Assembly (NCBI GenBank): GCA_963771355.1
Contig: CAVYTA010000001.1
Coordinates: 193,376 to 257,375, forward strand
DNA length: 64,000 nucleotides
Direction: 5' to 3'
From: an uncultured Candidatus Rokubacteria bacterium
GTDB lineage: Bacteria > Methylomirabilota > Methylomirabilia > Rokubacteriales > CSP1-6
Of the stretch, positions 36,768 to 40,489 are shown piece after piece (the first letter of the stretch is position 1; each line of letters starts with the position of its first letter). The notes under the pieces are model-generated. The model ran no database searches. It was not told the origin of the DNA and was given only the letters and a program-made list of their open reading frames with translations. Position numbers and translations under genes: made by a program.

Positions 36768-37556
36768 GTGGCGGCGCCGCGCGAGTGGTTCCGGGGCTTC
36801 TTCGACGCCACCTACCTGGCGACGGACGGGCCCGCCATGCAGAAGCGCGCGCGGGCGGAGATCGACTTCGTGACCCGGGTGCTCGCGCTCCGGCCCGGCG
36901 CGCGTGTCCTCGACGTGCCCTGCGGCTTCGGGCGACATTCCAGCGAGCTTGCCCGGCGCGGCTACGCGGTGGTCGGCGTGGACCTCTCGCCCACCATGCT
37001 CCGTGCCGCCCGCCGAGCACATCGCGAAAACGCGCGGCTTCGCTTCGTCCGCGGCGACATGCGCCGAATCGCCTACCGCGCCGAGTTCGACGCCGTCGTC
37101 TGCCTCTTCACGAGCTTCGGCTACTTCAGCGAGCGGGAGAACGTCCACACCCTCGGGAAGATGGCGCGCGCGCTCGGGCCGGGTGGACGCATCCTCATCG
37201 ATCACCGCAATCCCGCATACGACGCGGAGCTCCCCACGCACTCGTGGCGCCAGCCCCGGCCCGGGCTCTACGTGCTGTGGACGCTCGAGATCGACCGGCG
37301 GACCAACGTGCACGAGGCCACGTGGCAGATCCTCCGGCGCGGCGACCGGCGCGTGATCCGGAAGGCGTTCCGCCTCCGCCTCTGGACCCTCGCCCAGTGG
37401 CGGCGGCGTCTGCGTGAGGCGGGGCTGCGCCTCGTCCGCGCCTACGGAGATTTCAAGGGACGGCCGTTCCGCCGCGCGTCGGGTCGCCTGCTCATCCTGG
37501 CCGAGCGGGTGACGGAGCGCCGGGGGCGGCGGGGGGCATCGCGGCCGCGGCCTTGA
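36768..37556 (+). CDS. Class I SAM-dependent methyltransferase
   Basis: VLDVPCGFGRH, GVDLS, GDMR, FTSFGYF. Confidence 0.9.
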   Translation: MAAPREWFRGFFDATYLATDGPAMQKRARAEIDFVTRVLALRPGARVLDVPCGFGRHSSELARRGYAVVGVDLSPTMLRAARRAHRENARLRFVRGDMRRIAYRAEFDAVVCLFTSFGYFSERENVHTLGKMARALGPGGRILIDHRNPAYDAELPTHSWRQPRPGLYVLWTLEIDRRTNVHEATWQILRRGDRRVIRKAFRLRLWTLAQWRRRLREAGLRLVRAYGDFKGRPFRRASGRLLILAERVTERRGRRGASRPRP

Positions 37557-39147
37557 GCACATCGTCCAGCGTGCCGGTGAAGTAGAACGCCTGCTCCGGC
37601 AGGGCGTCGACCTCTCCATCGAGAATGGCGCGGCACCCGCGAAGCGCCTCGGCGCGGGAGACATGGAGCCCCGGCCGCTTGGTGTAGGGCTCGGCCACGA
37701 AGAAGGGCTGGGCGAAGAACCGCCGAAGCTTGCGCGCCCGCGCCCGCATGGGCTCCTCGCCCTCCGGCACTGGCTGATCGGGCGGAAGATCGAGCAAGGC
37801 CAGCGCCTCGCGGGCGCGCGTCGCGATCTCGAGGTGCTCGCGCTCGACCAGCCGGGCGTCGAGGAGCCGTGAGCGCGAGCCGAGGGGATCCACGGTGGGG
37901 TAGATCCCGAGCTGCGCGAGCGCGGTGGAGAGACGGATCACCGAGTCCACGCCGCGGAGCGCCGAGATCTCCTCACTCGTCCACGGCCCCTCTTCCCGGA
38001 GGAAGTAGAAGGCCTGGAGGGGGCCCACGGTGCCCCCGCTATAGCCTTCCTTCTCCCAGACTTCCTCGAAGGATGTGGTCATGGGCCCGGGCACGAGCGC
38101 GAAGATCGACAGGCGATCATTCCCGGCGCCGAGCCGCCGCGCCAGCTCCTCCACCACCACCAGGGTCCCCGCGCGGAACTCGCCGGCCACCGCCACCGTG
38201 CCGCCCGCCACCAGCGGGCACATCACGTCCACGACCTTGATCCCGGTCTCGAGGAGCCGCGCTCCGCCGTCCCCATCGGGCATGGGGTCGGCCAGGAGCT
38301 GGACGATGCGCTCGAAGCCCACGCGGTTCAGCGGCGTCTGGACATGGCGCCCCTCGCTCAGCACGGACATGCCCGGCGCGAATCCTTCGGTTGGCGTGGT
38401 GGCCACTGCTCGCACGACTCCGTCCGGCAGGCGCTGGATCACCTGCACGGAGATGGCCCGCTGCCCGGCGTCGTCGCTCACCGTCAGCTCGGTCAGCACG
38501 TCGGGCAGCGCGGAGGGGTCGAAGCGCGCCTCGATGACACGCTCGCGCGCCCGCACGATGCGCCCGATGCGGGCGGCGAAGTCGTCGGGGAGGGGATGGG
38601 ATTCGAGCGTGTCCTTGACCATGGTGAGGTTCCTCCGCTTGAGCTGAGCGCGCGCCGCATGCAGGCGGTTGTTGACGGTCGAGACCGGCACCCCCAGAAA
38701 GGTCGCGATGTCCTGCTGCGAGCAGTCGTGCACGTAGAAGAGCGTGACGACCTCGCGGAGGGGCCGCGGCAGCCCGCCGACGGCGGCGAGCACGGCGCCG
38801 TACTGCTGCCGCCGCTCCATGCGGCGCTCGGGGCTCATTTCCCCGGAGAACATCCCGTCGGCCTCCATGAGGGGCCGGGAAACCGGTGGCGTTCGCCGGA
38901 GCTGGCGATGGGCCTGATGCCGCACGATGCCCCGGAGCCAGCCCGGGAAGGCGGCGGGGTCCTCCAGCGTGGGCAGGGAGAACCAGGCGGCGACGAAGGA
39001 TTCCTGCACGATGTCCTCGGCGTGCTGCAGGTCGCGCACGAAGGACAGCGCGTAGCCGAAGGCCATGTGCTGGAAGCGCCGGGTGAGCTCGGCAAACGCC
39101 TCCAGGTCGCCGTGCCTTGCCTGCCGGGTCAGCGCTTCGAGGTCCAT
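37492..39147 (-). CDS. ECF sigma70 factor fused to a degenerate F1-ATP-synthase beta-subunit-like domain
   Basis: aa 1-172: sigma2 (GDLEAFAEL...AEDIVQESF...AAFPGWL) and sigma4 (LREVVTLFY...SQQDIATFLGVPVSTVNNRLHAAR). aa ~194-535: AtpD-like motifs GRIV, LETGIKVVD, GIYPTVDPL, RARKLRRFFAQPFFVAE, LPEQAFY. SD GGAGG upstream. Confidence 0.92.
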   Translation of the reverse strand: MDLEALTRQARHGDLEAFAELTRRFQHMAFGYALSFVRDLQHAEDIVQESFVAAWFSLPTLEDPAAFPGWLRGIVRHQAHRQLRRTPPVSRPLMEADGMFSGEMSPERRMERRQQYGAVLAAVGGLPRPLREVVTLFYVHDCSQQDIATFLGVPVSTVNNRLHAARAQLKRRNLTMVKDTLESHPLPDDFAARIGRIVRARERVIEARFDPSALPDVLTELTVSDDAGQRAISVQVIQRLPDGVVRAVATTPTEGFAPGMSVLSEGRHVQTPLNRVGFERIVQLLADPMPDGDGGARLLETGIKVVDVMCPLVAGGTVAVAGEFRAGTLVVVEELARRLGAGNDRLSIFALVPGPMTTSFEEVWEKEGYSGGTVGPLQAFYFLREEGPWTSEEISALRGVDSVIRLSTALAQLGIYPTVDPLGSRSRLLDARLVEREHLEIATRAREALALLDLPPDQPVPEGEEPMRARARKLRRFFAQPFFVAEPYTKRPGLHVSRAEALRGCRAILDGEVDALPEQAFYFTGTLDDVLKAAAAMPPAAPGAPSPARPG

Positions 39148-39196
39148 CGCCCCTCCTTCACCCCATAGGTGCCAGAAAGGGAGGCCGAGCTTTGGC

Positions 39197-40489
39197 CTAT
39201 TTCGTCTCGCGCGTGACGCCCTCGCGAAGCAGGTCGGCCACCTCCCCGGCAGTGAAGCCCAGCTCGGCGAGGATGTCCCGGGTCTCGGTGCCGAAGGGGC
39301 GGGTGGCGGGGGAGTGCCGGAAGCCGGCGTCGTCCAGCTTGACCGGATTGGACACCACCCGCACCGGGCCGAGGGCCGGGTGGTCCAGATCGTGGAGCAT
39401 CTCGTTGGCGAGGACCTGCTCGTCGTCCATCAGCTCCACGGGCAGCCGCACCCCGGCGGCGGGGAGCCCATGCGCGTCGCAGGCCGCTTGCCACCCGGCC
39501 GTGGTCCGCGTCTTCATGAGCGCCTCCATGGCGGCCCCCAGCGCGTCGTAGTGCCGCTGCTGCTCGGCGGGGTCCGCGATGGGGCGCTCGTGGGCGAGGT
39601 CCTTCATGCCCGTCGCGCGCATGAAGGCCCGCTGGAGCCCCGCGCTCACGCAGGCGACCGCCAGCGCGGCGTCCTTCGTGGCGTAGGTGCGGTAGTACAC
39701 GCGCACCATGCCGGGCGTGCGGATATTGGGCAGGAGCTCGGCCTGCTCGGTGTACGGCGCGCCCGCGGCGCGCAGCTCGGCCAGGCGCTCGAGGAGATCG
39801 CGGCGCGGGGCGGCGTCCGTCCGCTCCACGCGCACCATGCCGTTGTTCTGCACCACCAGGGCGGCGGCGAGCAACGCCACGTCCACCTCGCCGCCCCGGC
39901 CGGTGGTCGCCCGACGATAGAGCGCGGATGCCACTCCGAAGGCCAGGCTCATCGCGCACATGTAGTCGGCGACGGGCGGATCGCCGGCGGCGGGATTGCC
40001 ATCCACGATGCGCCCGTTGGAGGCCATGAGCCCGCTCCGCGCCTGGACCACGAGGTCCATGCCCGCCAGCATGGCGTCGGGGCCGCGCTGGCCGAAGGCG
40101 GTGACATTGCCCACGATGAGCCGGGGGTAGCGCGGGGCCAGCGTGGCGTGGTCGAGCCCCAGCTCGCGGGCCAGCCCGGGCCGGAAATTGGTGAGCACCA
40201 CGTCCGCGCGCGCGAGGAGGGCCTCGATCACCCGCGAAGCCGAGGGGTGCTTGAGGTTGAGCGGCAGCGAGTGCTTCCCCCGGTTGCGCGAGAGGAAGTG
40301 GCGCGTCTCCCCCGGCGCGAGGGGGTTGAGCGTGCGCACCGGGTCGCCCTCCAGCGCCTCGATCTTGATGACGTGCGCCCCGCCGTCGGCGAGGAGCTGC
40401 GCGCAGTACGGCACCGCGATGAACTGGCCGAACTCAACGATTTCAATACCCTCGAAGGGCTGGGGGCGGGGACCTCGGATCTCTCCCAT
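39197..40489 (-). CDS. CaiB/BaiF family III CoA-transferase
   Basis: IAVPYCAQLLADGGAHVIKIE, NRGKHSL, NFRPG, DLVVQARSGLM. Confidence 0.92.
   Translation of the reverse strand: MGEIRGPRPQPFEGIEIVEFGQFIAVPYCAQLLADGGAHVIKIEALEGDPVRTLNPLAPGETRHFLSRNRGKHSLPLNLKHPSASRVIEALLARADVVLTNFRPGLARELGLDHATLAPRYPRLIVGNVTAFGQRGPDAMLAGMDLVVQARSGLMASNGRIVDGNPAAGDPPVADYMCAMSLAFGVASALYRRATTGRGGEVDVALLAAALVVQNNGMVRVERTDAAPRRDLLERLAELRAAGAPYTEQAELLPNIRTPGMVRVYYRTYATKDAALAVACVSAGLQRAFMRATGMKDLAHERPIADPAEQQRHYDALGAAMEALMKTRTTAGWQAACDAHGLPAAGVRLPVELMDDEQVLANEMLHDLDHPALGPVRVVSNPVKLDDAGFRHSPATRPFGTETRDILAELGFTAGEVADLLREGVTRETK

Follow-up and report, generated by a model that had tools for sequence, protein, structure and literature searches.

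We describe here an unusual sigma factor gene on the minus strand of the window, by which we mean the whole 64,000-nucleotide stretch of DNA that was analysed, from an uncultured Candidatus Rokubacteria bacterium. Its 551-residue product (P0001) joins an ECF sigma factor to a domain resembling the beta subunit of F1-ATPase, and the gene and its elements are arranged as follows.

37492..39147, minus strand: the whole gene, coding for an ECF sigma factor plus a deleted, non-catalytic F1-beta-like domain (551 aa, P0001)
39190..39193, minus strand: -35-like element AAAG, with a 16-nt spacer to the -10-like element
39167..39173, minus strand: -10-like element GGCACCT of a candidate autoregulated ECF promoter
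39152..39157, minus strand: Shine-Dalgarno-like sequence of the full-length start (ATG 39147-39145), read from the sequence
38893..39084, minus strand: sigma-70 region 2 (aa 22-85), PF04542, 45.3 bits against a cut-off of 24
38641..38796, minus strand: sigma-70 region 4 (aa 118-169), PF08281, 54 bits against a cut-off of 25.7
38620..38636, minus strand: internal Shine-Dalgarno GGAGG (38636-38632) and in-frame ATG of Met176 (38622-38620), the predicted start of a free beta-like protein
38344..38568, minus strand: N-terminal beta-barrel of the F1-beta-like domain (about aa 194-268), from a weak PF02874 match, alignments and the model
38227..38247, minus strand: motif TGIKVVD (aa 301-307), in which G and K do not vary across the deep alignment
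38161..38184, minus strand: degenerate P-loop GEFRAGTL (aa 322-329), GGAGVGKT in host AtpD
38086..38112, minus strand: strand LSIFALVPG (host SVFAGVG); next, the former catalytic Glu position is Pro355
38035..38085, minus strand: 17-residue helix and loop across a deletion of about 89 residues that removes Walker B and the Pi-binding Arg
38005..38034, minus strand: strand GTVGPLQAFY (host GSITSVQAIY)
37897..37908, minus strand: GIYP, with Y416/P417 equivalent to adenine-pocket Y345/P346
37750..37788, minus strand: loop LPPDQPVPEGEEP at the DELSEED position, replacing host MEELSDED
37681..37710, minus strand: QPFFVAEPYT (QPFFVAE at 37710-37690), with F482, A485, Y488 and T489 equivalent to F418, A421, F424 and T425

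The motifs to which the preliminary description drew attention were all recovered on the minus strand within the 37492-39147 open reading frame (GEFRAGTL at 38184-38161, LSIFALVPG at 38112-38086, GTVGPLQAFY at 38034-38005, and GIYP at 37908-37897); they are real, although several of them fall outside the interval 38000..38190 in which they had been placed. The sigma part has the ECF (group 4) layout, with sigma2 and sigma4 and without sigma3, and the fusion scores 70.9 bits against a cut-off of 42.9 in a profile search with TIGR02937. Residues 186-537 align with F1-ATPase beta as three separate blocks (best E value 5e-45 with solved beta chains, far beyond chance), Foldseek and VIA both rank beta first, and the ESM Atlas returns an unnamed cluster (0.96; 142 members) together with F1 beta clusters. 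The host genome has a single copy of the fusion, and its atpD is separate and intact, encoding a canonical AtpD in its own atp operon; two further PF00006 matches of about 100 bits in that genome (C4:101926-102549 and C6:2243106-2243720) are possibly Rho-like. A convergent class I methyltransferase ORF (36768-37556, plus strand) overlaps the 3' end of the fusion gene by 65 bases, and a family III CoA-transferase gene (39197-40489, minus strand) ends 49 bases upstream of it, just before the promoter motif; a similar arrangement is present in L007 and absent from most other loci. Gene neighbours, as judged from crude ORF calls, are not conserved between fusion loci and offer no clue to a ligand; the upstream genes differ from locus to locus, and a conserved operon was rejected.

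Alignment with host AtpD gives 27-34% identity in the aligned blocks and locates what has been lost. Between the helix-B Glu and the YP motif the fusion has 81 residues and host AtpD has 170, a loss of about 89 residues that corresponds approximately to host positions 207-297 and takes out the Walker B D252 and R256; a second deletion, of about 21 residues relative to host AtpD, lies between the barrel and TGIK. SIFALVPGPMTTSFEEVWEK pairs with SVFAGV-GERTREGNDLYHE of host AtpD, after which the chain jumps to GSITSVQ. The preliminary description had proposed an in-frame loss of about a hundred residues carrying both the catalytic Glu and Walker B, which is correct for Walker B, but the Glu is better described as substituted than as deleted, because the pairwise alignment sets P355 opposite host E190 and the next helix is still there. 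Replacement of the DELSEED loop, here by LPPDQPVPEGEEP, was also seen correctly, and a DELSEED-like remnant (L[ST]x[ED][ED]) persists in 36 of 287 homologues.

These features recur throughout a set of 386 collected proteins that includes 288 fusions, of which 278 could be parsed for motifs and 270 measured for the Glu-to-YP distance. Neither GER nor the Walker-B pattern hhhxDN occurs in any of the 278 parsed fusions, GxxxxGK[ST] occurs in three, and the Glu-to-YP distance is 68-90 in all 270 measurable fusions, so that the deletion is common to all; the concern that homologues might have intact Walker motifs is thereby answered (0/278 with GER or Walker B). As had been stated, GEFRAGTL lacks both the P-loop Lys and Thr, but the Lys loss does not extend across the family: the parsed fusions have T at the Lys position 105 times, K 93 times, and R 26 times, and of 53 distant representatives 44 carry K or R there and two retain the following Thr. 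Since the distant representatives keep K or R, the Lys loss is a trait of the window's clade only, and it is largely one clade-level event and not many independent ones. The window's clade has R or K at P-loop position 4 instead (101/118 in alignment A1), and a basic residue at position 4 or 7 is present in 245 of 287 homologues.

Among the matches listed in the first homologue search, 120 were 61-99% identical and 118 full-length sequences were aligned, the close homologues bearing Rokubacteria or Methylomirabilota names. The best 150 representatives after 50% clustering comprise 66 ECF fusions, 10 canonical beta subunits, and 74 beta-like-only sequences, many of which are fragments or begin at an internal Met. 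Judged by names and genome records, the fusions come from Methylomirabilota, Alpha- and Gammaproteobacteria, Chloroflexota (Herpetosiphonaceae and Thermomicrobiales), and Armatimonadota (Chthonomonadaceae), a four-phylum spread by source names, and the distribution is patchy, with the fusion in 27 of 200 genomes of its own phylum, all from one family. At a strict threshold, P0133 had a match in one of 401 Chloroflexota genomes, P0132 had none in 301 genomes of the phylum of G210, and the barrel-less P0262 had none in 401 genomes, the latter two results meaning not found and not absence. Scanning metagenome loci with a TGIK pattern returned mostly canonical-length atpD, with three of 80 family-like by match span. 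In a quick tree the canonical AtpD proteins form a starred group (support 97), and a possible single origin of the deleted beta-like family has a support of 59.

Related architectures were encountered alongside the fusions. P0388-P0392 are variants with an extra C-terminal ClpS domain, a hint of a link to proteolysis; ClpS is present in five of 15 longer homologues by precomputed Pfam, and is C-terminal in both that were scanned (P0388 563-638 and P0390 556-632). P0401 has a second architecture, with an ECF sigma factor, ankyrin repeats, and a barrel-less degenerate beta-like domain, and in P0190 the deleted beta-like domain of the fusions follows a hydrophobic N-terminal region that takes the place of sigma. 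Stand-alone barrel-less degenerate beta-like proteins with smaller deletions (P0262, P0267, P0235, P0246, and P0268) were also found, one cluster being named from Herpetosiphonaceae; P0235, P0262, and P0267 lie outside the canonical group in the quick tree and are possibly intermediates. P0270 joins a MerR HTH to an F1 beta that looks intact and has GGAGTGKT, GER, and Walker B, and at L023:4929-6239 a related ECF sigma factor carries a phenylalanyl-tRNA synthetase catalytic-like domain (PF01409), another housekeeping enzyme serving as a sigma tail. Truncated or frameshifted fusion copies at L011, L013, L019, and L082 are either real breaks or assembly errors.

Both parts of the protein evolve under constraint. 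The dN/dS values (NG86) for 10 informative pairs are 0.13-0.35 for the beta-like part and 0.11-0.25 for the sigma part, 11 of the 20 pairs submitted having been computed (three loci were unparsed) and one identical pair dropped, and the beta value for the window and L082 takes in a frameshifted tail. A ratio of about 1 had been named beforehand as one that would speak for decay, and the range of 0.13-0.35 in the beta-like domain together with the shared deletion leads us to reject neutral decay. The proposal of a pseudo-enzyme under selection is supported by this range and by homologues that are not intact, and the ligand binding that goes with it is something we infer. By these sequence measures the fusion is real, selected, and not a decayed allele.

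AlphaFold2 predicts the beta-like domain alone with a pLDDT of 95 and a pTM of 0.93, folding as a single unit, and the whole protein with values of 85 and 0.73 and one continuous helix running from sigma4 into the linker. The model of the whole domain has F1 beta as its top structural match (4q4l; Z 23.5, rmsd 10.8 A, 277 aligned), and with the barrel left out the core aligns with an A/V-type B subunit over 201 residues at 3.7 A. Homology and model agree on a three-domain beta fold, and our reading of the comparison, which involves a model and different targets, is that the barrel has shifted into space left by the deletions; such a shift speaks against a place for the domain in an F1 ring. 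Prediction of a complex of sigma (1-176), the beta-like domain (187-540), and ADP, run without controls, gave a score of 0.00, which we count neither for nor against an interaction.

The peak of conservation in the beta-like domain involves residues equivalent to those of the adenine site, which in beta is lined by Tyr345, Phe424, V165, P346, and F418 (PMC5608556, in part). The equivalents are kept in nearly all of the 287 homologues, with G327 in 286, V330 in 275, an aromatic residue at 416 in 286, P417 in 287, F482 in 265, A485 in 277, an aromatic residue at 488 in 275, and T or S at 489 in 277. We take A421, T425, and G161 to be further adenine-pocket positions of beta. In a deep alignment of 56 sequences the eight pocket positions have a mean grouped conservation of 0.93, compared with 0.56 for all columns and 0.60 for 220 core-like ones, and random column sets match the pocket once in 100,000 in each control, a comparison in which the pocket set was picked after the alignment was seen and burial was uncontrolled. 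Retention of GIYP and QPFFVAE as adenine-pocket motifs, noted from the start, is thus upheld, with pocket columns far better conserved than others. The structural motifs TGIK..D..P, E334, and D420 are as conserved as the pocket or more so, and therefore fold stability could account for part of the pocket signal. The retained pocket is likely to bind an adenine-containing ligand, and phosphate binding may be weak or absent given the loss of both P-loop Lys and Thr in the window's clade. True beta in isolation binds nucleotide and closes up with no catalysis (PMC10273367, in part), and a beta-like domain on its own could therefore, in principle, act as a switch. We also note that the column at P0001 residue 356, just past the former catalytic strand, is acidic in distant members (E in 34 and D in 13 of 53), and that it could be a retained metal- or ligand-contacting residue.

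Upstream of the gene, the pattern AAAG-N16-GGCAC(C/T)T recurs about 25 bases before the start, despite the differing upstream genes between loci. It was parsed in its strict form in 22 of 29 loci, with three more showing the motif, two a variant, and two without it; in a second set, drawn partly from the same genomes, it was parsed in 15 of 17 loci and the other two end in GGCACTA. The motif is also present in the distant members L120 and L211. When the host genome was scanned with a position weight matrix (PWM), the gene's own site scored 28.7 and the next, which lies inside a coding sequence (G000 C7), scored 20.0. Matches above 13, 15, 17, 19, and 21 bits numbered 70, 29, 11, 4, and 1 in the genome compared with 138-151, 54-68, 19-23, 6-11, and 2-5 in two shuffles, such that at all thresholds the counts were at or below those of the shuffles and no site in the host genome except the gene's own promoter rose above chance. 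Exact matches occur only at the fusion gene itself in G004, G006, and G007, with two more each in G000 and G002, and among 397 matches of a relaxed pattern in the host genome, 20 of them near a start with a Shine-Dalgarno sequence, none was convincing except that at the own gene. Because the motif was learned from own-gene upstream sites, divergent target promoters would be missed. The simplest reading of these patterns is that the motif is an autoregulated promoter with its own gene as the main target. ECF264 promoters have a -35 of GTAACCTT and a -10 of GGCACATT (PMC7826278, in part); the GGCACCT of the fusion resembles GGCACATT, whereas its AAAG differs from GTAACCTT. Upstream of 4992 in L020, a related Nitrospiraceae ECF with another, Pfam-unassigned tail has the near-identical motif AAAG-N16-GGGACTA. 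Metatranscriptome contigs from four of the 14 runs listed cover the fusion gene and its neighbours alike, in short patches, coverage that is no measure of expression, start or level.

A second candidate start lies between the sigma and beta-like parts. Met176 is kept in 233 of 287 homologues, and a Shine-Dalgarno-like sequence precedes its position in 30 of 34 distinct loci compared with 18 of 214 other internal ATGs, in a test that used six permissive patterns and left four of the 34 rows without a signal; since related genomes are not independent, any P value attached to this difference would be inflated. The Arg four codons before Met176 is encoded by AGG in 22 of 23 instances, compared with 66 of 1754 Arg codons elsewhere in these genes. 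We therefore consider it likely that translation from Met176, as predicted from the internal Shine-Dalgarno sequence, releases a free beta-like domain. A similar combination of Shine-Dalgarno sequence and Met was seen in four of 10 sister ECF loci with other tails that were inspected, the Poribacteria tailed ECFs at L025, L027, L033, and L035, in which AAGGAGA is followed by an in-frame ATG about 30 codons past sigma4; the combination is thus not confined to the fusions. As these Poribacteria tails are unrelated, the arrangement may be a relic, or a feature, that tailed ECFs have in general, and nested short products may be common among them.

There are several models for how such a protein might work. 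The promoter motif and the internal start, neither of which figures in the preliminary description, alter the mechanism that is likely. We tentatively favour, with a probability of roughly 0.4, a one-gene sense-and-sequester circuit for an adenine-type ligand, resembling that of tipA, which uses two start codons to make both an activator and a short form that sequesters (PMC7762955, in part); a self-targeting sigma factor and a free C-terminal domain from the same gene match this logic. The stripped beta-like domain would bind the ligand, neither hydrolysing it nor coordinating Mg; most likely the ligand is a nucleotide or a toxin or antibiotic that resembles a nucleoside and targets ATP-binding sites. 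Binding would move the domain from open to closed, the movement would pass via the conserved linker helix to sigma4 and switch sigma on, and the activated sigma would transcribe its own gene. The free domain made from the internal start would then sequester the ligand, providing negative feedback as in TipAL/TipAS. That soil bacteria have repurposed the catalytic subunit of ATP synthase as a target-mimic receptor, with a miniaturised, dead F1-beta in a one-gene ECF circuit that detects a nucleotide-like toxin or antibiotic directed at ATP-binding sites, induces itself, and fills the cell with free mimic as a sponge, is a speculative proposition that we regard as unlikely.

The pocket conservation on which the sense-and-sequester circuit draws, including that of the P-loop Gly (G327, 286/287), would serve equally in a direct sensor of energy charge, in which the fused domain reads ATP, ADP, or AMP and acts as an anti-sigma in cis, the short form, if made, is a damper in trans, and the regulon takes in other genes that have divergent promoters. 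K or R at the P-loop in 44/53 distant representatives fits such a sensor, as do the closure of isolated beta on binding nucleotide (PMC10273367, in part) and the precedent of ECF tails that act by ligand-driven conformational change (PMC8999054, in part). However, nothing in the host genome but the own promoter scores above chance, the N-terminal sequences of the 20 relaxed candidates reveal no recognisable atp gene, and a pure sensor of this kind with itself as sole target would give little output, and we consider it a somewhat unlikely solution. Another role for the free form would be as an excess decoy, with the domain mimicking beta to catch an F1-directed inhibitor, an unassembled F1 subunit, or an assembly factor; the predicted free form suits titration, the barrel and the C-terminal helical domain are both kept, and there is an ankyrin-containing relative (P0401). 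In F1 structures, though, a large part of the surface that contacts alpha/beta and gamma belongs to the deleted segment, most members have lost DELSEED, the barrel is displaced in the model (10.8 A over 277 compared with 3.7 A over 201, with different targets), and conservation peaks at a small-molecule pocket, all of which make capture of a protein quite improbable.

A ligand may not be needed if the tail is a structural anti-sigma element freed by proteolysis and the pocket residues only stabilise the fold. Proteolysis-activated tailed ECFs are known (PMC8999054, in part) and ClpS occurs in five of the 15 longer homologues, but few members take the ClpS form, the linker is predicted to be a helix and is conserved, unlike a variable cleavage loop, and the internal Shine-Dalgarno sequence is left unexplained; we give this scheme little credence. 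Least probable by far, and already largely refuted, is a decaying or accidental fusion, or a still-active ATPase. Truncated or frameshifted copies (L011, L013, L019, and L082), the patchy occurrence in 27/200 genomes of the phylum, and the fortuitous capture of ECF tails described in Planctomycetes (PMC7671368, in part) could be cited in support of decay or accident, but the beta-like part is under purifying selection and the deletion is shared across phyla, and an active enzyme is at odds with the lack of a catalytic base and Walker B and the near absence of intact Walker A.

The fusion adds to the tailed ECFs a proposed type of sensor that is a pseudo-enzyme carved from ATP synthase beta. 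It also provides a natural, predicted-stable minimal F1-beta fold without two central strands, in which the roles of adenine pocket and hinge can be studied apart from catalysis, and the mapped promoter motif and internal start make the system directly testable with a reporter in a laboratory strain. The ligand could reveal the first direct nucleotide-sensing ECF or a new soil compound aimed at ATP-binding sites, and a receptor that mimics the target of a toxin would, if real, point to a new class of soil antimicrobials or signalling nucleotides. The family of ECF sigma-pseudo-F1-beta fusions is apparently undescribed in the literature searched, where neither ECF-beta fusions nor pseudo-F1 regulators were found; a search of the main text of PMC7826278 gave 0 matches for ATP synthase or ATPase, and a search of the PMC7671368 supplement gave 0 matches.

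Three groups of known systems bear comparison with the fusion. Like F1 beta it runs from a barrel through a RecA-like core to a helical C-terminal domain and keeps the adenine-pocket residues, but it is without the Walker A Lys/Thr, catalytic Glu, Walker B, and DELSEED, has about 89 and 21 residues deleted, has a sigma factor attached, and sits outside the atp operon; membership in AtpD was rejected, as it scores 170.6 bits with TIGR01039 against a cut-off of 462.85 and shows departures at Walker A, the GER Glu, Walker B, and DELSEED. With the tailed ECF sigma factors it shares the sigma2 and sigma4 core, a soluble tail of about 350 aa, and no conserved anti-sigma neighbour, but its tail is F1-beta-derived and not DUF1835, SnoaL, TPR, WD40, or Cys-rich, and its hosts are, by source names, Methylomirabilota, Proteobacteria, Chloroflexota, and Armatimonadota and not Firmicutes or Planctomycetes. 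ECF264 was rejected because the Pfam scan found no DUF1835 and the homologue names are not those of Firmicutes (Paenibacillaceae). ECF57 is a Planctomycetes group with about two transmembrane helices in the tail and a Cys pair in sigma2 and sigma4 (PMC7826278, in part), and it was rejected because these defining features are lacking; the best 19-residue hydropathy of the fusion is 1.73, inside the globular core, and among the 287 homologues, 143 have A and 138 have C at position 79, and 147 have C at position 142. A parallel in design is with TipA (TipAL/TipAS; PMC7762955, in part) and AlbA (AlbA/AlbAS), which join a DNA-directed N-terminal module to a C-terminal ligand domain and have two starts and self-regulation, as predicted here. 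Membership with TipA was rejected, since the Pfam scan found no MerR HTH or TipAS-type domain, and the likeness seen is one of predicted design: the output of the fusion is an ECF sigma factor and not a MerR HTH, and its proposed sensor is a pseudo-enzyme derived from a housekeeping ATPase.
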